Notes: generated from the sequence alone by a model not told the origin. A DNA stretch of 64,000 bases from Candidatus Bathyarchaeia archaeon (GCA_038883655.1 JAVZLQ010000004.1:168468-232467); one strand, 5' to 3'; numbered from the stretch's first letter, positions 565 to 8,202 are shown. A program made the numbers and translations.

Positions 565-1119
565 CTACTTTGACAGGAGCATTTCTATAAGCGCTTTTTG
601 GTCTACTTCTGCGCGTGTCCGCCAATCCAAATACAACTGTTCATTTTCATCTTGCGTCAGATAACCATACCTAATGTAGCGGTCAATGTTGACGTCGACC
701 TTCCACCCTGGAAGCTTCTCGCGTAAGAGTTCCTCAACTTCCTTTCTTGGAGCTTTCCCCTTCTTTGATATTATGTAGGCTATGGCTATTGCAAGTCCAG
801 CTAAGTCGTCTATTCTCCACCCAATCATCTTCGCCTCTTTAGGCGTTAACTCGCCTCGTAATGTTATGTAGAACCTTGCTCTATCCAAATCTTCCAATGT
901 TGGATTTTCCTTCGGCTTATCCTCCTCAAAGACGGTTTTGACCTGCAAGTCCAAAGTCTTCAAGTGCTCGTCCAGAAGCTTGAGAACTTTTGGGTAGTCT
1001 GCTCCAAGGGATTTTCGCAGTTCCCATCCTTTTACGCCTGGCTTTTTGTGTCGTCTATAAAATAGCATGTGAACTGCCCTCTTCATTTTGCTTGCGTAGT
1101 AAGCTTTGCGTTTGCTCAT
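565..1119 (-). CDS. KITE-type tandem winged-helix SMC accessory subunit (ScpB/Nse1/Nse3-like)
   Basis: Third gene of the SMC-kleisin operon, with overlapping stop/start. C-terminal WH ...IDRYIRYGYL...LYLDWRTRAEVD resembles Nse1/MAGE WH-B. Confidence 0.65.
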   Translation of the reverse strand: MSKRKAYYASKMKRAVHMLFYRRHKKPGVKGWELRKSLGADYPKVLKLLDEHLKTLDLQVKTVFEEDKPKENPTLEDLDRARFYITLRGELTPKEAKMIGWRIDDLAGLAIAIAYIISKKGKAPRKEVEELLREKLPGWKVDVNIDRYIRYGYLTQDENEQLYLDWRTRAEVDQKALIEMLLSK

Positions 1120-1946
1120 TTTAGGCGTTCTCCCTTGCGTTTAAGCCATTCTTCTGGTGAGATGGCTATGGGCACGGAAACTAGCTGTTTTTTACCAAGT
1201 TTGGCTGGAGGCTTCTCGTAGGGTTTTATGAAAATCTCCTCTTCAAGTGGACGGATCTCTAATGTTGCATAGCCATATGTGATTAAGAAGCTTGTCATAA
1301 AAGCCCTATGGACTGTTTCCTCATATGTTTCAGCCATGATGAAGTCCCAATAACTTATCTTTTCATCTTCACCTTGTTCGGCGGTTTTATTTTTGAGTTC
1401 GCGCCAAAAGTTTTCCAGTTCTTCGGAGAAGGCTTTGTCCAGCAGTATTCTCTGTTCTATTAGTTCTTTGCGTGTTGCCTTGCCCGCTTCGGCTTCCATC
1501 GGCAGAGGTTCCTTCCACCTCTCTTTCAGTGGCAGTAAGCTTTCCCAGTATCGTATTGCCTCTGCTAGGCTGTGAAGTGAAATTTGCTCCAATTCGACTG
1601 TTGGATGCCAAGCGTAAAGGAAACTTTCAACAATGTCTTCTTTTTCTATCCGCCTTATCTTCTCTTCTAGCAGGAATGGGTCTGTGTAAAGCGACGTTGA
1701 ACGGTGTTTAACCCACTCGCTTTGCAGTTTTATGACCGAGGCTATGTGATGTATTGTTTCAGCGTCTAGGCATAGATCTTCTGGGATTTCCCATTCTGGA
1801 AAATACTCCTTAACCGTTGCTATAATGTCGTCCACGTCTATCAAGAACGGGTCTAGGGAGCGCTCCTCCACGGATCTGCACATTTCAATTATGCGCTGGA
1901 GCTTCTCCCTACCAGCCTTTATTCGCTCCTTCTTTGACTGCATCAA
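1116..1946 (-). CDS. Kleisin (ScpA/Nse4-like)
   Basis: N-terminal LDPFLIDVDDII...IASVIKLQSE and C-terminal ISYWDFI...RAFMTSFLITYGYATLE...EEIFIKP match ScpA N- and C-terminal motifs. Coupled to the SMC gene. Confidence 0.75.
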   Translation of the reverse strand: MMQSKKERIKAGREKLQRIIEMCRSVEERSLDPFLIDVDDIIATVKEYFPEWEIPEDLCLDAETIHHIASVIKLQSEWVKHRSTSLYTDPFLLEEKIRRIEKEDIVESFLYAWHPTVELEQISLHSLAEAIRYWESLLPLKERWKEPLPMEAEAGKATRKELIEQRILLDKAFSEELENFWRELKNKTAEQGEDEKISYWDFIMAETYEETVHRAFMTSFLITYGYATLEIRPLEEEIFIKPYEKPPAKLGKKQLVSVPIAISPEEWLKRKGERLK

Positions 1947-3886
1947 GTAACCTCGCGTATTATCGATTTGCCCTCAACATTTTGCACAGTAATTATGTTA
2001 ATGGCTTCTTTTGCGAATGTCACTTGGCTTGGCGTGATTATAATGTATTGGGCGTTTGCATCTTTAACCATTGATATTAATATTTTAGCAATTAGCTCGC
2101 GGTTTTTCGGGTCCATGTGGATATCATACTCGTCAACTGCCCTGAACGGTGAGCGGACGTGCTGTTGTAAGGCTAGAAGAAAGCTCATTGTGGCTGTTGT
2201 TCTTTCTCCACCGCTTTGCGTGTAAGCATCTAATGGAACTGGTTTTGCACCCTTAAAGCCCACAAGAATCTCCAGTCCAGCAGCCTCAATGTCGTGCTCG
2301 TTAACAAGCCTAACTTCACCTACAGCTTGAGATTGGCTTAAGATTTTCTGGTATTCTAAGCTTACGCGGTCGAGAAGGCTCTGGATGACTGTTCGCCAAG
2401 CTTGCATCCTCGTCTTAATCTCTTCAAGTGCTTTTTCCCTGTTTTCCGCAACAAGCCTAGCCTTATCCTTGAGCTCCAAATACAGTTTTGAGTAGGATTC
2501 ATACATGCGTTCTATGTCCTCTGAAACGTTTGAAAGTGCTGCCAGGTGCCCATCCGTAACCCTCAATTCATCCAAGATTTCGCCTACGCTCTTGACAACC
2601 GCAATTCTTGGTCCAGTTTGCTCTGCGCGGTTTATGGCTTCATTTAACTGTGCCTTTGCGCTTTTTAGTTGTTGCTCGATTTCTTCCAAATCCGCTTTGA
2701 CGTTTTCACGGCGGAACTGAAGCAAAGCCAGCTTAACGCGGTTTTCTAGAACTTGGCTGCCGACTTTTTCGATGTTTTCATCTAGGCTTTTGATTTTCAA
2801 CTGGTTTTCATCTATCTTGCCCTTCAACTTTAAAAGGTTTTGACTAAAGCTTTGTATAAGCTCTTTAAGATTTTCGGCTCTTAAGAGTTTAAACTGCGCG
2901 TTTTCTTGCACGGGCGGGTTTAAGCCTTCTCCGGAAAACCTTTCAAATGTTGAGGTTTCCTTTAGAAGCTGTTCGTAAATGGCGACTGTAGCTTCGTTTC
3001 CAGCCTTTTCACGTTCAAGACTTAAGCGTTCCTCAAATAACGTTTTCCACTCGCTTCTCAACTTTTCCAGTTCACTTTGATGCGTGTTTAGGTGCTCTTC
3101 CACTTCGCTTGTTTCTTTTTCGATTTGGCTTAAAGTGGCCAGCCGCCTTCTCTTTTCAGCTTCCAACCCGTTTATTGTTTCTTCTCTTCTGGCAACTTCT
3201 GCCCACGCCAGCTCCCTCTCCAAAAACCGCCTCTTCGTCATTAGCTGCTTTTTCTCTTGGTATCGCTCGTACTGTTCCCGCCAATAATTGAGTGTCTGTT
3301 CGGCGGATTCCAAAAGCTTGCTTATGGATTCTTCTTGGCTTAGGATTCGCGTTAACTTTTTCTGCGCTTCCAAAACATTGACGCGGAAAGGCTCCAGTCC
3401 AACAGCTGCTTCTACCATGCGTAGCTTTTGTTGTTGCGAGAGCACTGTGAACTGTTCAACCATGTTTTGATGCATTATTATGAGCATGTTGTTCGGGTCG
3501 ACGCCAAGCTTTGAGAGGAATCTGTCAACCTCCGCCTTCGTAACAGCCCTATTCTCCAACTCAAACCAGTACTGCCCATCCCTACGCAAAACACGCGTGA
3601 GAAAAATCTGATCCTTGTTAAATTTTGGAACTGGGCGCCTCCCGCCTTTCTTAGCGTTATCCAAAATTAGCGTGACGCGCGCTTGGTCCTTGCCCCAACG
3701 AATCAAGTCGCTCAATTTCCTAGAACGTTCAGTATAAGACTGCCCAAGAGCTACAGAAATAGCTAATAAAAGCGAGGATTTTCCAGAACCATTCGGACCG
3801 CAAACAACATTTACGCCTGGTTTAAGGGGTACCCTAGCGTACTCGTAGCTCATGAAGTTTTCAAGGATTACCTCGCTGACGAGCAT
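1943..3886 (-). CDS. Short SMC-family ATPase, Smc5/6-related
   Basis: LENFMSY, Walker A GPNGSGKS, Q-loop MHQN, long coiled coils, signature QSGGER, Walker B/D-loop FRAVDEYDIHMD. Confidence 0.92.
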   Translation of the reverse strand: MLVSEVILENFMSYEYARVPLKPGVNVVCGPNGSGKSSLLLAISVALGQSYTERSRKLSDLIRWGKDQARVTLILDNAKKGGRRPVPKFNKDQIFLTRVLRRDGQYWFELENRAVTKAEVDRFLSKLGVDPNNMLIIMHQNMVEQFTVLSQQQKLRMVEAAVGLEPFRVNVLEAQKKLTRILSQEESISKLLESAEQTLNYWREQYERYQEKKQLMTKRRFLERELAWAEVARREETINGLEAEKRRRLATLSQIEKETSEVEEHLNTHQSELEKLRSEWKTLFEERLSLEREKAGNEATVAIYEQLLKETSTFERFSGEGLNPPVQENAQFKLLRAENLKELIQSFSQNLLKLKGKIDENQLKIKSLDENIEKVGSQVLENRVKLALLQFRRENVKADLEEIEQQLKSAKAQLNEAINRAEQTGPRIAVVKSVGEILDELRVTDGHLAALSNVSEDIERMYESYSKLYLELKDKARLVAENREKALEEIKTRMQAWRTVIQSLLDRVSLEYQKILSQSQAVGEVRLVNEHDIEAAGLEILVGFKGAKPVPLDAYTQSGGERTTATMSFLLALQQHVRSPFRAVDEYDIHMDPKNRELIAKILISMVKDANAQYIIITPSQVTFAKEAINIITVQNVEGKSIIREVT

Positions 3887-4087
3887 CTGCCATTCTTTTC
3901 CTCTAGCGCCTTCCCTACTGCAGTATAAAATAGAGGATAAAAACTCTTATTAAAACAATTAGGCAAGAAGGGGTTGGGGCTAATCTTTATTTTAACAAAA
4001 TTTTGGACCCATGTTATGTATGTGTGGATATGCAAAACGCAAAACTTTAGTCTTCAACTCCATACAATAATTGTTGGCGATATCGAA

Positions 4088-4774
4088 ATGGTTGTTGCTG
4101 GCAAAGTGTTTAGGCTCGCGGAACAGCTTTCGTTGGCTGAAGTTGCTTCTAGGCTTAAGGATTATCGTGTTGAAGAGCCTTATGAGGAGGGCGATTACAA
4201 GTTTACGCTTGTTAGCGAAGTTGTTGGGCTTCTTTCAAAAGAAGGTGGGCTTCGGGGCATCTACTCCCATGATTACGTTATTCACGTTTTTCATAGGGGC
4301 AAGATGGCGCCTTTGCCACGCACAGTTGAAGCACTGTTCAGTTTTGCAGAACATGGAAAAGCCACGTTTTTGACTGTTGTGGAGAAGAAGCGTCTAGCCA
4401 ACTTCATAGCCAACAAGCTCAGCGAAATCCTATTCGAGAAGGTTGGCGGAATAGTTGAAGCCCGAATCCCGCCTGAAACTTTGAGGGACTTCCACTTGAA
4501 GAATCCTGAAGATACGAAGATAACGTTTTTCGATAACGTTGACATTCCAAACGTGAACAAGCTTTCGCTTTATGGACCAGACCTAATCAACACTTCGCTT
4601 TTCGAAGACTACTGCAAACATGGCGACCTCTGGTACGTCGTCGCAAGAACTAGAGAATACGGCTATGTGGTTGGCATAACCCGCGACGCGTCAGTCACGA
4701 TATTCAACCTAACAGACAAAGAAAGATACTTGGAGTACGTGCAGAAGGAAGTTTACCCGCTAATAGCTAAATAG
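4088..4774 (+). CDS. Conserved-looking hypothetical protein, divergent from the SMC operon
   Basis: Likely start is ATG 4088 (MVVAGKVF). Globular alpha/beta composition; no recognised motif. Confidence 0.75.
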   Translation: MVVAGKVFRLAEQLSLAEVASRLKDYRVEEPYEEGDYKFTLVSEVVGLLSKEGGLRGIYSHDYVIHVFHRGKMAPLPRTVEALFSFAEHGKATFLTVVEKKRLANFIANKLSEILFEKVGGIVEARIPPETLRDFHLKNPEDTKITFFDNVDIPNVNKLSLYGPDLINTSLFEDYCKHGDLWYVVARTREYGYVVGITRDASVTIFNLTDKERYLEYVQKEVYPLIAK

Positions 4775-4830: not shown

Positions 4831-6252
4831 TTGTCCTTTTTAAGGAAATTTAAGGAAAAATTAACTCCACCGAACGCGTCCATTTCTTTGGAACTTGCGA
4901 AATGGCGATTCAGCCCAGGCGAAACCATTGAAGGCAAAGTTGTAGTCAAATCGGAAGAAGATTTTGACGCCGTTGGAATACGATGCGAAGTAGAATGCAT
5001 CGAGGAAATTAAAAGTAGAGTAAGCGAGTACAATTCGTCAAGAAAACGCATGATTGAAAGAGACGTCTGGAATAGAATTACGCATTTTGCGGAAAAACCA
5101 ACGATTTGTGGTCCAATACACATCACAAAAGGGTCAACACAAGCTTTCCCAATAAGCATTAAGCTCCCAACAAGCGCATGGCTATCTCATAAAGGAGTTG
5201 ACCGCAAGCTTACATGGATCATTAAGGGCGTAGTAGCCGTTGAAGGTAGACCAGACGCCACAAGCAAAACCATAGAAATTGAAGTTGGCGAGCCACAGCA
5301 AATTCAGCCTCCGCCACCACCGCCAATACCAGCTCCTGCTCCACAAGTGGCAGCACCTACTAGTCAAACAGCAGCCGCGCCTCCGCCGCCGAGTATGCCT
5401 TTGCCAACAAACTGTGGCAGATGTGGCGCTCCATTAGGCGTGTCACATGAGGATTTGGTTGTAACTTGCAGATACTGTGGCTTTACCATGACTGTGGCAA
5501 CGAGAGAAGAAGTAAGAAGGCACAGCATGTTGGAGAACCGTTTGTTCGCTCAGCAAGCCGTTGAAGCAGCGCGGAAGTACATGGATAAAGGCATTTTTAG
5601 GGTTGGTGTTTCAAAGGAAGCCGTTATAACAGATGTGAAACTTCGTTACGTGCCCTTCTGGGTTTGCCAAGTAACCACAAACACCTATTTTAGGGGCGTT
5701 ACTGGAACTGGAATTATGGGCGAAATCCACCAGGCGCAAGAGGCAGTTACAGACAAGAGGTCAAGTGGACTGGCAAAATTTGGAAAGCTCGTTCTTGCAG
5801 GAGTAAAAGCCTACGCTGAAACCCAACAGAAGGACAGACGACCACAAACAGTAGCGTATTCCTTCTCTAACACTTATATTTGGCCGACTTTGGCTAGGCG
5901 GACAATGATAAGCGAAATAAACTATTATGATGTGCCAGCCGCGCGAAAGATTCCCTTTGACGTTGGGAAGATACCGTCAGATGTGGAATTCCTAAACATA
6001 GAGTTGAATGAGGAGGAAGCCAAAATGAAGATTAAAGCGGAAGTCGAAGCAAGGGAGCGGCTAATCGCTTCTGGGAAAGTGGACACACTTGAGACTTGCA
6101 GTACAAGTATTGTCATGGGTGAAATGGAGCTTGTTCACGCTCCAGTTTGGTTTGTGCATTACACTTTGGGCGGCGAAAACTACGTTGTCGCCGTTGATGG
6201 TTGCGAGGGGAAAGTTTTAGGTGGGGGAAGACCGCTATTTAAAATCAAATAG
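4831..6252 (+). CDS. Arrestin_N/SpoOM-like domain + Pro-rich linker + zinc ribbon + YdjG-like C-terminal domain
   Basis: FSPGETIEGKVVV...FPISIKLP...LTWIIKGVVAVEGRPD (arrestin fold), poly-Pro linker, CxxC-x15-CxxC, then YVPFW...APVWFVHY...VAVDG..GKV. Confidence 0.7.
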   Translation: MSFLRKFKEKLTPPNASISLELAKWRFSPGETIEGKVVVKSEEDFDAVGIRCEVECIEEIKSRVSEYNSSRKRMIERDVWNRITHFAEKPTICGPIHITKGSTQAFPISIKLPTSAWLSHKGVDRKLTWIIKGVVAVEGRPDATSKTIEIEVGEPQQIQPPPPPPIPAPAPQVAAPTSQTAAAPPPPSMPLPTNCGRCGAPLGVSHEDLVVTCRYCGFTMTVATREEVRRHSMLENRLFAQQAVEAARKYMDKGIFRVGVSKEAVITDVKLRYVPFWVCQVTTNTYFRGVTGTGIMGEIHQAQEAVTDKRSSGLAKFGKLVLAGVKAYAETQQKDRRPQTVAYSFSNTYIWPTLARRTMISEINYYDVPAARKIPFDVGKIPSDVEFLNIELNEEEAKMKIKAEVEARERLIASGKVDTLETCSTSIVMGEMELVHAPVWFVHYTLGGENYVVAVDGCEGKVLGGGRPLFKIK

Positions 6253-6802: not shown

Positions 6803-7873
6803 ATGCCAGTTATTGAAAGGGTTTCATGGGATTATGCTGGACCAGAAGACATAGCCTACAGATTCCCAAAACTCACTTTGAAATATGGAAGCCAAGTCAT
6901 AGTTAAAGAGAACCAGTGGGCAGTTTTCTTCCGCGACGGAAAAGCCTACGACGTTTTCGGTCCTGGAAGGCACACCATAACGAGTAATAATATTCCGCTT
7001 TTGACTGGCGCCTTGAAGGCGCTTCGAATTATAGGCGACATATTCGATTGCGAAGTTATTTTTGTAAGCAACAGCCAGTTTAGGGCAAACTTCGGCGGAA
7101 CAGCCTATTCCGCGCCAAGCGGAGACATAAAATATCAGGCGGAGCTTGGATTTTACGGTTACATGCTCTATAAAGTTGAAGACCCGAAGCTTTTCGTGAC
7201 TGAGTTCTTCGGAAACAGAAACGCAAGCACATCGAGGGACATTGAAAACTACATTAGAGGTTTCATAAACGAGCGCATAATAAACGAGTTCGCAAACTAC
7301 GACATATTCACCCTTGTGCGGAATGTTGACGCAACCACGGATAAAGTTACGCTGAAAATAAGCGACGAAGCTGCGAGAGTAGGCTTGAAAGTGATAGACT
7401 GCGTATTCGAAGGCGTAAAGATCCCAGAAGAAGCTAGGCGTTTCGCTTCTGGATTGGGCGCCCAAGCTATGGTGATGCAATACATGAAAGAAACCGCCAC
7501 GGAACTCAAAGGAAGCGAGGGTGGAGGCGCAGCCGCCGCCGGATTAGGCGCAGGAATGGGCTTAACAATGCCGTACATCATGGCGCAGCAGATGCAGCAA
7601 ACCCAAGCGCAACAGTTGGTTATATGTCCAAGTTGCGGTGCGAAAAACCCCGTTGGAATGAAGTTCTGCGGAAACTGCGGCGCAAGTTTGGCTCCGCAAG
7701 CAAAGGTTATTTGTCCAAAGTGCAAAGCTGAGAATCCGGCTGGAATGAAGTTCTGTGGGAACTGCGGTTCGCCCTTAACCTCGTCGACCAGCGAAGTTGC
7801 ATGTCCGAAGTGTGGCACGAAGAATCCTGCTGGGACAAAGTTCTGCGGAAACTGCGGCGAAAAACTAGCCTAA
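6803..7873 (+). CDS. SPFH/band-7 (YdjI/virion-core-like) protein with three C-terminal zinc ribbons
   Basis: GSQVIVKENQWAVFFRDGK..DVFGPGRHTI...N.P, a Gly/Ala-rich GLGAGMG segment, and three CPxCGxxNPxGxKFCGNCG repeats. Confidence 0.9.
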   Translation: MPVIERVSWDYAGPEDIAYRFPKLTLKYGSQVIVKENQWAVFFRDGKAYDVFGPGRHTITSNNIPLLTGALKALRIIGDIFDCEVIFVSNSQFRANFGGTAYSAPSGDIKYQAELGFYGYMLYKVEDPKLFVTEFFGNRNASTSRDIENYIRGFINERIINEFANYDIFTLVRNVDATTDKVTLKISDEAARVGLKVIDCVFEGVKIPEEARRFASGLGAQAMVMQYMKETATELKGSEGGGAAAAGLGAGMGLTMPYIMAQQMQQTQAQQLVICPSCGAKNPVGMKFCGNCGASLAPQAKVICPKCKAENPAGMKFCGNCGSPLTSSTSEVACPKCGTKNPAGTKFCGNCGEKLA

Positions 7874-8202
7874 GACCTTTTTATCTTCTCCTTTTTCTTG
7901 TTTTGACTTTTTAATGGAGAACCACATTCTCCACAAAAATTCATGTGCGATGACATCAACGCACCGCATGATGGACAAGTGATGGGCGCTGGCGGATACA
8001 AAGCTTTTCCACAATGTCCACAAAACTTGTTCTCAACAGGGTTTTTTCCGCCACATTTTAGACAAACCACGACTTGTTTGGCGATTCTTTGGGATGGTTG
8101 CATAATTTGGAACATGGACTGCGAAATCATTAGTCCCATGGCTAATCCCAAACCAGCAGAAAAAGCCTCGCCGACACCGTAGTTTACCAATTCTTTTCCC
8201 AA
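7870..8202 (-). CDS. Double zinc-ribbon protein resembling the C-terminal tail of the adjacent SPFH protein
   Basis: AGLGLAMGL followed by two CxxC..N/S...FCGxCG ribbons. Confidence 0.8.
   Translation of the reverse strand: MGKELVNYGVGEAFSAGLGLAMGLMISQSMFQIMQPSQRIAKQVVVCLKCGGKNPVENKFCGHCGKALYPPAPITCPSCGALMSSHMNFCGECGSPLKSQNKKKEKIKRS

Follow-up and report, generated by a model that had tools for sequence, protein, structure and literature searches.

Does the three-gene cluster at positions 565-3886 of this stretch encode a complex of the Smc5/6 type, and how would such a complex hold together and act if its SMC subunit lacks a hinge? The window, meaning the whole 64,000-nucleotide stretch from a Candidatus Bathyarchaeia archaeon, was examined with these questions in mind.

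The operon and its three proteins

Three open reading frames with overlapping stops and starts lie on the minus strand between 565 and 3886. They encode an SMC ATPase of 647 aa with short arms and neither hinge nor hook (1943..3886; Pfam SMC_N, E 3.4e-37), an Nse4-type kleisin of 276 aa (1116..1946), and a KITE protein of 184 aa with tandem winged-helix domains of the Nse1/Nse3 (MAGE) type (565..1119). The kleisin and KITE genes share a 4-nt ATGA overlap in the junction AAAATGAGC. At the SMC/kleisin junction, ACTTGATGCAG, two kleisin starts are possible, TTG (1946; overlap of 4 nt) and the ATG directly after it (1943; overlap of 1 nt, TGATG), and the two genes are coupled under either choice. 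The reading frames and both junctions thus bear out the single coupled operon proposed in the initial annotation, and the peptide strings it quoted are present: ETSTFERFSGEGLNPPVQEN (SMC aa 310-329), QSGGERTTATMSFLLALQ...SPFRAVDEYDIHMD (SMC aa 557-592), and LDWRTRAE in the third protein. From a reading of the sequence, the unstranded interval 3887..3973, between the SMC gene and an opposite-strand gene, is the presumed promoter region; the A/T-rich stretches TTTTAATAAG and TATTTTATAC are located there, 40-70 nt 5' of the SMC ATG.

The ATPase motifs of the SMC are complete and invariant in 47 homologues (alignment A1). These are a Walker A motif, GPNGSGKS, found by pattern search of the translation (aa 30-37; 3776..3799, minus strand; N32, G33, G35, and K36 invariant), an ABC signature, QSGGE (aa 557-561; 2204..2218, minus strand; S558, G559, G560, and E561 invariant), and the Walker B, D-loop, and H-loop stretch AVDEYDIHMD (aa 583-592; 2111..2140, minus strand; D585, E586, H590, and D592 invariant). 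In an AlphaFold2 model built from the 47-row alignment (mean pLDDT 87.9), the outgoing arm is helix 165-318, about 154 residues with a calculated length of roughly 23 nm, and the return side consists of helices 337-424, 434-450, and 458-517. The hinge position is occupied by a 16-residue apical loop with pLDDT below 50 (aa 319-334; 2885..2932, minus strand), and the model contains no globular apex. Pfam SMC_hinge (PF06470) was not found in the protein, in which SMC_N matched, and a scan of the translation found no CxxC and a single cysteine, C29; the claim that the SMC has neither a hinge nor a Rad50 hook therefore stands. Near the head, the return arm is interrupted at two points that probably form a 'joint', since the best Foldseek match of the model is a head-plus-joint structure.

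The second protein had been proposed to be an ScpA/Nse4 kleisin, and the evidence points to the Nse4 type. A search of PDB sequences with the single kleisin sequence gave no matches; the family profile (A3) was informative, matching EID3/NSMCE4B at 5.3e-07, yeast Nse4 at 2.3e-06, and ScpA only at 0.18-0.77. The Pfam ScpA model did not match the kleisin. Pfam Nse4_C matched 17 of the 21 family members (best E 3.5e-07), and the window's own kleisin scored 19 bits, below the cut-off of 26. This match falls on the C-terminal winged-helix region (aa 197-246; 1209..1358, minus strand), where the Nse4/EID3 alignment covers a conserved Y-W-x-F...SFL block.

For the KITE protein, fold comparison was the informative approach; single-sequence and profile searches of PDB sequences returned chance-level matches only. 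The top six Foldseek matches of its AlphaFold2 model (mean pLDDT 88.6) were all MAGE, Nse1, or Nse3 structures, the best being the MAGE-G1/NSE1 and Nse1-Nse3-Nse4 complexes, as the annotation of the third protein as an Nse1/Nse3 KITE had led one to expect. VIA-align gave Z 13.1 with 7dg2_C (rmsd 4.3; 168 of 184 residues aligned), Z 10.5-10.8 with the KITE chains of yeast Smc5/6, and Z 9.4 with ScpB (3w6j_F). Within the KITE family, Pfam matches were all weak, with SMC_Nse1 recognized in 4 and MAGE in 3 of the 24 members, and the window's own KITE matched no Pfam model, ScpB included. The protein contains no cysteine and therefore no RING, and a Pfam scan of the neighbouring genes gave no match to the Nse1 RING, Nse2, Nse5, or Nse6.

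Affinity and history of the short SMC

The SMC itself had been described as Smc5/6-like, and several comparisons agree. Among solved structures, its best matches are Smc5 (5.4e-31, 111 bits) and Smc6 (1.2e-28), followed by archaeal Smc (1.6e-23) and Rad50 (2e-09). Two named eukaryotic Smc5 proteins (P0370 and P0385) were among the 150 best matches to the SMC query in 1.84 billion representatives. The proposed likeness of its head motifs to Smc5 and Smc6 was confirmed on real sequences: named Smc5 proteins from Arcella and Rhizophlyctis carry QSGGER...(S/T)PFR(L/V)VDEINQGMDP, and the SPFRAVDE context of the window SMC is common to named eukaryotic Smc5, whereas the canonical Smc of the same genome reads SGGERS...SFYILDEIDAHLD. 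The SMC scored below the NCBIfam cut-offs, with SMC_prok_A (TIGR02169) at 181 versus 729.4 bits, ASRP at 68 versus 300, and arcadin-4 at 50.5 versus 860. Whole-protein Foldseek did not discriminate among Smc5/6, canonical Smc, cohesin, and Rad50; the top match was the head plus joint of Pyrococcus Smc (5xei).

A head phylogeny (IQ-TREE; 324 head columns, 72 rows, Rad50 as outgroup) placed the short forms in a 65-row Smc5/6-type group with the eukaryote-like rows, split from canonical Smc with support 98/92 and from Rad50 with support 100/99. A long, compositionally odd sequence (P0377) and a poorly covered Rad50 row (L156) were omitted. The row set held neither Smc1-4 nor bacterial Smc, so the Smc5/6 affinity leans partly on published trees, in which an archaeal SMC clade including Bathyarchaeota is described at the base of SMC5+6 (Yoshinaga & Inagaki 2021, PMC8665677). 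Median head identity was 30.4% to the eukaryote-like rows and 27.9% to canonical Smc, a small gap.

A different affiliation would make the protein a Rad50- or RecN-like tether of DNA ends in double-strand-break repair, rather than part of a kleisin-closed SMC complex. RecN has short arms and no hinge, which the window SMC recalls; the NCBIfam Rad50 models match it partially (83 bits), and in 7 of the 20 distant loci the gene next to the KITE encodes an Lhr helicase. However, the Rad50 score lies far below its cut-off of 700 bits, the heads separate from Rad50 in the tree, the SMC has no CxxC, and the genome possesses its own Mre11-Rad50, whose Rad50 carries a central CxxC. In addition, the SMC is encoded with a kleisin and a KITE, partners that neither Rad50 nor RecN is known to use. 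We regard the tether as very improbable and retain the Smc5/6 affiliation. The same genome also contains a canonical operon (Smc of 1184 aa, ScpA, ScpB), and a genome-wide SMC_N search returned one Smc5/6-like gene, one canonical Smc, and one Rad50, together with ABC-type ATPases.

Operons joining an SMC5/6-related SMC to an Nse4-like kleisin and an Nse1/3-like kite are described in TACK and Asgard archaea (van Hooff et al., bioRxiv 10.1101/2024.01.07.573240), and relatives of the window operon are widespread. The KITE was found in 198 of the 401 genomes sampled from the phylum, and the best 80 of 560 relatives found when genome contigs were scanned with the KITE alignment all belong to Bathyarchaeia. 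The order SMC-kleisin-KITE recurs in 17 of 20 distant loci (SMC reading frame 584-699 aa in 16, with one cut by a contig end); in the other three, kleisin and KITE have no adjacent SMC. The short SMC recurs as well. There are 59 best representatives at E <= 1e-100, and the 54 with at least 540 aa comprise 51 of 541-685 aa and three of more than 1000 aa; lengths in the 120 closest clusters are 637-680 aa. Judged from these sequences, the short form is the family norm, not an effect of chance or truncation.

The initial annotation had read this form as a 'proto-Smc5/6', which is not borne out. Hinges are present in both eukaryotic Smc5/6 and canonical Smc. An Asgard relative (P0335) matches Pfam SMC_hinge at E 4.6e-11, and in P0300, a protein of 982 aa that is sister to the short clade, the hinge model matches weakly (E 0.045). 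On these grounds the short SMC would most simply be a secondary reduction, not a primitive state. Among the matches listed for the Pfam hinge in the 401 genomes, reading frames were about 1150-1360 aa or were cut by contig ends.

In the head tree, long paralogues with a central CxxC are nested inside the short clade. In one Bathyarchaeia family, the gene for the hinge-less SMC appears to have been duplicated and to have gained a coiled-coil insert of about 400 residues, whose central CxxC is a candidate zinc hook. A blastp comparison of this insert with the Rad50 and canonical Smc proteins encoded by related genomes and with P0300, P0328, and P0335 found nothing better than E 0.018. The best stretch of the NCBIfam ASRP model falls on the insert in P0262 and P0261, which may be mere coiled-coil similarity. 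With this insertion as an example, the apex may act as an exchangeable module. In three genomes from three families, the best match to the canonical Smc of the window's genome, used as query, was the short SMC, and in two of those families no Pfam hinge was found in any sampled genome. The short SMC may therefore be the sole SMC complex in some lineages, in which case SMC function in vivo would not require a hinge.

Predicted arm contact, and likely mechanism and cellular role

The mode of apical dimerization, which had been left as unknown, can be narrowed to a parallel arm-arm contact near the tip, as a prediction only. An apical fragment was predicted to form a homodimer with a score of 0.67, against 0.00 for the best of three controls; 20 of 30 proteins with a solved pair structure reached this mark, as did 1 of 23 with a single-chain structure. 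The core of the contact is N-arm segment aa 287-314 (2945..3028, minus strand). It is symmetric (i:i at 288, 292, 295, 299, 303, and 307), has regular i/i+3/i+4 spacing, and includes the small residues A295, G296, and A299; runs agreed in at least 92% of contacts, with partner pLDDT of at least 85. The contact was predicted between isolated coiled-coil fragments, which structure models often place side by side.

That tendency is one reason to consider the same complex without any arm-to-arm contact, in which the SMCs would be joined through ATP-engaged heads and the kleisin, forming a DNA clamp at the heads with two free arms and no closed rod or ring. Consistent with free arms, family members differ in the length and sequence of the apical loop and adjacent arm, some lack the segment altogether, and no conserved apical motif is present in alignment A1. 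The separation of the fragment score from its controls and the symmetric, regularly spaced contacts with small residues argue against free arms, as does the later gain of a CxxC at the same apex in one lineage, which suggests a benefit from linking the tips. A clamp with free arms is an unlikely alternative to the joined rod.

If the arms are joined, two SMC subunits would lie side by side as a rod, in parallel helix-helix contact close to the ends of their arms. The kleisin would also hold the rod by linking one head at its neck with the other at its cap, and a KITE dimer would sit on the kleisin. Head engagement driven by ATP would then trap DNA in a clamp with the heads on one side and the kleisin/KITE module on the other, as in Smc5/6, MukBEF, and Smc-ScpAB. 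Taken together, the window operon probably encodes a Bathyarchaeia form of the archaeal 'SMC5/6-related' complex, with a homodimeric reduced SMC, an Nse4-type kleisin, and an Nse1/Nse3-type KITE, which would act by this rod and clamp mechanism in a housekeeping role. More tentatively, and with slightly less than even confidence, we propose that a widespread SMC-kleisin-KITE branch, the closest prokaryotic relatives of Smc5/6, works without a hinge, its short arms joined only by the parallel contact near their tips.

Restriction of extrachromosomal DNA had also been suggested, and that role would fit an SMC system directed against plasmids or phages, comparable to Wadjet/JetABCD, MksBEFG, or Lamassu. 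Eukaryotic Smc5/6 is described as restricting viral DNA (PMC9458440), JetB is among the KITE fold matches (Foldseek E 1.0e-03), and the SMC matches the PADLOC models mad3 (98 bits), LmuB (79.9), and JetC (35.8). However, these SMC hits are generic to ABC/SMC heads, with bits below those for Smc5 (111) and SMC_prok_A (181), and the kleisin, the KITE, and the opposite-strand neighbour match no PADLOC model. No JetD/MksG-type nuclease or Lamassu effector gene was found among the scanned neighbours, and no nuclease gene was seen next to the operon. Furthermore, KITE identity is 42-57% across the 20 distant loci, with one copy per genome as the rule, which is the pattern of a core gene and not of a patchy island gene. 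The defence role was rejected on these grounds, and we give it hardly any weight; the likely role is housekeeping chromosome organization or repair. The opposite-strand neighbour (4085-4774) gave nothing in Pfam, PADLOC, or a PDB profile search; in the Atlas it fell in unnamed clusters with sub-threshold leads to CENP-L (0.82) and RdgC (0.77).

Significance and relation to known systems

What the hinge contributes to DNA entry and exit and to loop extrusion is debated in the SMC field. A hinge-less complex would show which activities need the hinge, whether DNA clamping, topological loading, or translocation, and a natural, thermostable three-protein complex of about 1100 residues would suit cryo-EM and single-molecule work. 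The operon family itself is already published. The elements new here are the predicted parallel tip contact, the long CxxC paralogues inside the short clade, and the three genomes with the short SMC as the only match. These data also bear on the origin of eukaryotic Smc5/6, since on present evidence the form found in Thermoproteota is a side branch that underwent reduction, not the ancestral state. A literature search for reports of hinge-less SMC5/6-related proteins in archaea returned nothing on this family, and the main-text passages on these complexes do not mention a half-length, hinge-less SMC, which their supplements may. In agreement with the initial annotation, those passages report the archaeal Smc5/6 relatives phylogenomically only.

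Eukaryotic Smc5/6 (PDB 7qcd, 7tve, 8i4x, 9lwi) shares with the window complex the QSGGER...PFRxVDE head motifs, an Nse4-type kleisin C-terminal domain, a tandem winged-helix KITE of the Nse1/Nse3 type and, as we infer, the DNA clamp of heads, kleisin, and KITE. It differs in being an Smc5/Smc6 heterodimer, where the window has one SMC gene and presumably a homodimer; its solved chains have 1091-1114 aa and a hinge, compared with 647 aa, arms of about 154 residues, and no hinge; and it uses both Nse1 and Nse3, compared with one KITE gene lacking cysteine and RING. The prokaryotic Smc-ScpAB of Pyrococcus and Bacillus (TIGR02169; 5xei, 5xns, 3w6j) likewise pairs an SMC homodimer with a kleisin and dimeric KITE, all encoded in one operon, and its head-plus-joint fold is common to the window SMC (5xei being the top Foldseek match). 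However, the window SMC falls well short of the TIGR02169 cut-off of 729 bits and lacks SMC_hinge, its partners have no ScpA or ScpB Pfam match, and the true Smc-ScpAB operon is separate in the genome.

The literature search also retrieved a hinge-less SMC of marine Actinobacteria-like bacteria (PMC12153180), which similarly combines an ATPase head with a coiled coil; this protein is bacterial and related to canonical SMC, and the relevant passages describe neither kleisin and KITE partners nor an Smc5/6 affinity. The ASRP proteins (ClsN, Sph1/2) and Rad50 are also short archaeal ATPases of the SMC superfamily with coiled-coil arms, but they are described as carrying a zinc hook (PMC9389158), which the window SMC lacks; the same source describes no consensus in the genes flanking ASRP. 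The archaeal SMC5/6-related complexes, as described in the relevant passages (PMC8665677; Yoshinaga et al. 2022, PMC9389158; 10.1101/2024.01.07.573240), have the same gene set, operon, and host group as the window locus; their heads likewise group with SMC5/6, and a canonical Smc-ScpAB operon is found in the same genome. Nothing separates the two, and the window operon is a member of this published family.

An SMC5/6-related operon and its placement

The window belongs to a Bathyarchaeia (Thermoproteota) genome, its closest protein clusters being named Bathyarchaeia or Bathyarchaeota. The three genes of the operon overlap on the minus strand and, according to the ORF listing, encode an SMC ATPase of 647 aa (3886..1943), a kleisin of 276 aa (1946..1116), and a KITE protein of 184 aa (1119..565). 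The kleisin and KITE genes share an ATGA overlap; at the SMC/kleisin junction, TTGATG lies across the TGA stop of the SMC gene, so that the start codon of the kleisin is TTG or ATG, with an overlap of 4 nt or 1 nt, respectively. The SMC protein matched Pfam SMC_N (E 3.4e-37), and its Walker A, Q-loop, signature motif, Walker B, and H-loop are all present and invariant across a 47-row alignment. None of the NCBIfam equivalog cut-offs was attained, as shown by the scores for SMC_prok_A (181 versus 729 bits), Rad50 (83 versus 700), ASRP (68 versus 300), and arcadin-4 (50.5 versus 860).

Comparison with PDB sequences placed yeast Smc5 (5.4e-31), human Smc5 (5.7e-29), human Smc6 (1.2e-28), and yeast Smc6 (3.1e-25) ahead of Pyrococcus Smc (1.6e-23), cohesin Smc3, and Rad50 (2e-09), a ranking that is not decisive alone because archaeal Smc is represented there by head constructs. 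When 1.84 billion representatives were searched, named eukaryotic Smc5 proteins of Arcella (P0370) and Rhizophlyctis (P0385) were among the best 150 matches. The initial annotation had noted a likeness of the head motifs to Smc5 and Smc6, and all the strings it cited from the SMC and KITE proteins were found in the window translations. An alignment of real sequences bore out the likeness: QSGGER...SPFRxVDE is common to the window SMC and Smc5, LDEFDVFMD is seen in a second eukaryote-like clade, and the canonical Smc of the same genome reads SGGERS...SFYILDEIDAHLD.

A head tree was built on 324 columns retained from the profile, which supplied 172 for the N-head and 157 for the C-head. Its 72 rows comprised 39 short (hinge-less) forms, five long CxxC forms, two other long forms (P0300 and P0328), one Asgard protein (P0335, Candidatus Freyarchaeum), 18 eukaryote-like proteins, three canonical Smc, and four Rad50 as the outgroup; P0377, a homolog with a very long branch and odd composition, and the Rad50 of locus L156, with 102 columns filled, were excluded. 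Canonical Smc formed a clade (100/99). The window heads grouped neither with it nor with Rad50, and all the Smc5/6-like rows fell on the other side from canonical Smc (98/92). Among them, the eukaryote-like rows plus P0328 had as their sister group (97/95) P0300 together with the short clade (94/91). Because Smc1-4 and bacterial Smc are absent from this tree, placement relative to them rests on published trees, which put at the base of SMC5+6 an archaeal clade with Bathyarchaeota among its members (PMC8665677; PMC9389158; van Hooff et al., bioRxiv 10.1101/2024.01.07.573240).

Probable loss of the hinge and a predicted arm-to-arm contact

The claim that the SMC protein has neither a hinge nor a hook held up. 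The Pfam scan gave no hinge match, and the protein has a single Cys and no CxxC. In the AlphaFold2 model (mean pLDDT 87.9), the head is followed by a helix (165-318), a low-confidence apical loop (319-334, pLDDT <50), and helices 337-424, 434-450, and 458-517 that return to the head. The breaks in the return arm at 425-433 and 451-457 lie at the expected position of the "joint" of SMC arms, and the best Foldseek match was a Pyrococcus head-plus-joint structure (5xei). Short length is the norm of the family. The 120 closest clusters measure 637-680 aa, and 51 of the 54 representatives of at least 540 aa (from 59 with E <= 1e-100) measure 541-685 aa. At 17 of 20 distant loci, from other families of Thermoproteota, the SMC gene adjoins the kleisin gene; its ORF measures 584-699 aa at 16 of these and is truncated at a contig end at the other. 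The apex varies in both length and sequence across the family.

Eukaryotic Smc5/6 and canonical Smc have hinges. The Asgard relative P0335 (835 aa) matched Pfam SMC_hinge (4.6e-11), and P0300 (982 aa), which branches next to the short clade, gave a weak hinge match (0.045). Together these point most simply to loss of the hinge and distal arm on the branch from which the short clade arose, and the "proto-Smc5/6" of the initial annotation appears reduced rather than primitive.

Dimerization of the arms was modeled with two copies of residues 240-410 and the 47-row alignment. The model, which covers isolated coiled-coil fragments, scored 0.67 in three runs, and the best of three controls scored 0.00. 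Among proteins of known structure, 20 of the 30 solved as pairs attained the score mark, as did one of the 23 solved as single chains. The runs agreed in at least 92% of contacts, with a partner pLDDT of at least 85. The two arms are predicted to run parallel and to meet symmetrically: residues 288, 292, 295, 299, 303, and 307 each face their own copy, and 331-335 and 380-392 also take part; the small residues A295, G296, and A299 are among the contacts. Such a contact would leave the two heads at one and the same end, as SMC dimers have them in the rod state.

Close relatives of the window SMC include long paralogues, of which P0252, P0261, and P0262 measure 1016-1047 aa (37-40% identical); the long forms overall measure 1016-1067 aa, with P0304 and P0307 as partial members. 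Their approximately 400 extra residues are placed exactly at the apex of the window protein. The motif C(D/E)(K/R)CGS occurs once in them, in a central position, and is a candidate zinc hook. Long forms were found in only one family among 151 genomes of the class, and at least four genomes (G482, G476, G439, and G424) have both the long form and a normal short form. At the two loci read, both from a Bathyarchaeia family (L061:1444-4647, plus strand; L062:1498-4617, minus strand), the long paralogue stands alone, with no kleisin or KITE gene adjoining. In the head tree, the long forms group together (100/98) and nest, with the short forms of the same family, in a clade supported at 100/100, and an AU test rejected the tree that unites all short forms without the long ones (p 0.0008; the group was named after the tree was seen). 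Given this nesting, the long forms look like duplicates of the hinge-less gene that were extended by a long coiled coil bearing a candidate zinc hook. The long paralogue would then combine a head of the Smc5/6 type with an arm of the hook type.

The kleisin, the KITE protein, and their neighbors

The window kleisin matched Nse4_C below the Pfam cut-off (E 0.0017), and 17 of 21 members of its family matched this domain, at best with 3.5e-07. Searched against the PDB, the family profile found human EID3/NSMCE4B (5.3e-07) and yeast Nse4 (2.3e-06), with ScpA far behind (0.18-0.77). Of the ScpA/Nse4 likeness first proposed, it is therefore the Nse4 type that the family profile identifies. The KITE protein had no Pfam match, and matches within its family were weak (SMC_Nse1 in 4/24, MAGE in 3/24). 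Its model (pLDDT 88.6) is a tandem winged helix. The Nse1/Nse3 assignment was upheld by Foldseek, where the six best entries were MAGE-G1/NSE1, Nse1-Nse3-Nse4, and MAGE-A4, followed by JetB, ScpB, and MukE. VIA-align gave a Z of 13.1 for 7dg2_C (rmsd 4.3, 168 residues), 10.5-10.8 for the KITE chains of yeast Smc5/6, and 9.4 for ScpB. The protein contains no Cys, and hence no RING. KITE identity is 85-95% across the 120 closest clusters and 42-57% across the 20 distant loci, a pattern that fits a core function.

Three of the distant loci (L044, L048, and L053) have a kleisin and a KITE gene with no SMC gene within approximately 5 kb; at L048 the pair comes after a HerA-like (DUF87) ATPase gene, and at L053 two small genes lie between kleisin and KITE. 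An Lhr-type helicase gene adjoins the KITE gene at seven of the 20 (L041, L042, L044, L046, L047, L053, and L060), for example at L044:2520-5357 (Pfam DEAD, DEAD_assoc, and WH_Lhr; Pfam was checked on two of the seven). The Lhr homolog of the window's genome is on a different contig (C1:375354-377975).

On the opposite strand, adjoining the SMC gene, is an uncharacterized protein of approximately 229 aa (4085-4774, plus strand; ORF listed from 3974). Homologs 42-54% identical adjoin the SMC gene on the opposite strand at five of the 20 distant loci, and at a sixth lie within 1.7 kb. Profile searches of Pfam, PADLOC, and PDB gave no match for this protein. It may be a fourth component, or its gene may be co-regulated. 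Further along is a 473-aa protein (4831-6252, plus strand) whose N-terminal domain is arrestin-N/Spo0M-like and which also has a proline-rich linker and a zinc ribbon. Next to it are two ORFs (6803-7873, plus strand; 7870-8202, minus strand) whose C-terminal parts contain CPxCG...FCGxCG zinc-ribbon motifs in repeated form. As far as seen, these three genes have no visible relation to the SMC operon.

Possible function, distribution, and comparison with known complexes

By analogy with Smc5/6, MukBEF, and Smc-ScpAB, a short rod-shaped SMC homodimer would carry an ATP-gated DNA clamp, to which its heads, once engaged, would contribute along with the kleisin and a dimer of KITE. Restriction of extrachromosomal DNA had also been suggested; neither the PADLOC search nor the operon neighbors gave any pointer to defence.

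Among 401 genomes sampled from the phylum, KITE was detected in 198 (86 of 162 genera) and a Pfam hinge in 158, the hinge matches listed lying in frames of approximately 1150-1360 aa or cut at contig ends. Some families have both; one has the hinge in 56/56 genomes and KITE in 0/56. Three other families have KITE in 29/32, 7/8, and 17/17, and a Pfam hinge in 0/32, 0/8, and 0/17. When genomes G008, G080, and G057 (97, 99, and 92% complete) were queried with the canonical Smc of the window's genome, nothing better than the short SMC was found. A fourth genome, belonging to one of the three KITE-positive, Pfam-hinge-negative families, carries a 1125-aa Smc-like gene without a Pfam hinge match (G010:C2:485368-488727). 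The mini complex may be the sole SMC-kleisin complex in some lineages, in the sense of "not found with these queries" rather than proven absence.

The archaeal SMC5/6-related operon family is already published. No mention of the missing hinge was found in the hinge-related passages of PMC8665677, PMC9389158, and the van Hooff preprint, whose supplements may hold lengths or domain maps, and full-text literature searches returned no report on an absent hinge in archaeal SMC5/6-related proteins. A hinge-less SMC cluster is described for marine bacteria (PMC12153180).

Elsewhere in the window's genome, contig C4 encodes Mre11 (401 aa) and a Rad50 of 695 aa with a central CxxC at residue 360 (C4:94029-97318, outside the window; 4-nt overlap); the Rad50 arms are short as well. 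Contig C3 encodes a canonical Smc (1184 aa, Pfam hinge) with ScpA and ScpB, also in an overlapping operon. The genome thus has the same two-complex arrangement, canonical plus SMC5/6-related, as is drawn by van Hooff et al. (bioRxiv 10.1101/2024.01.07.573240).
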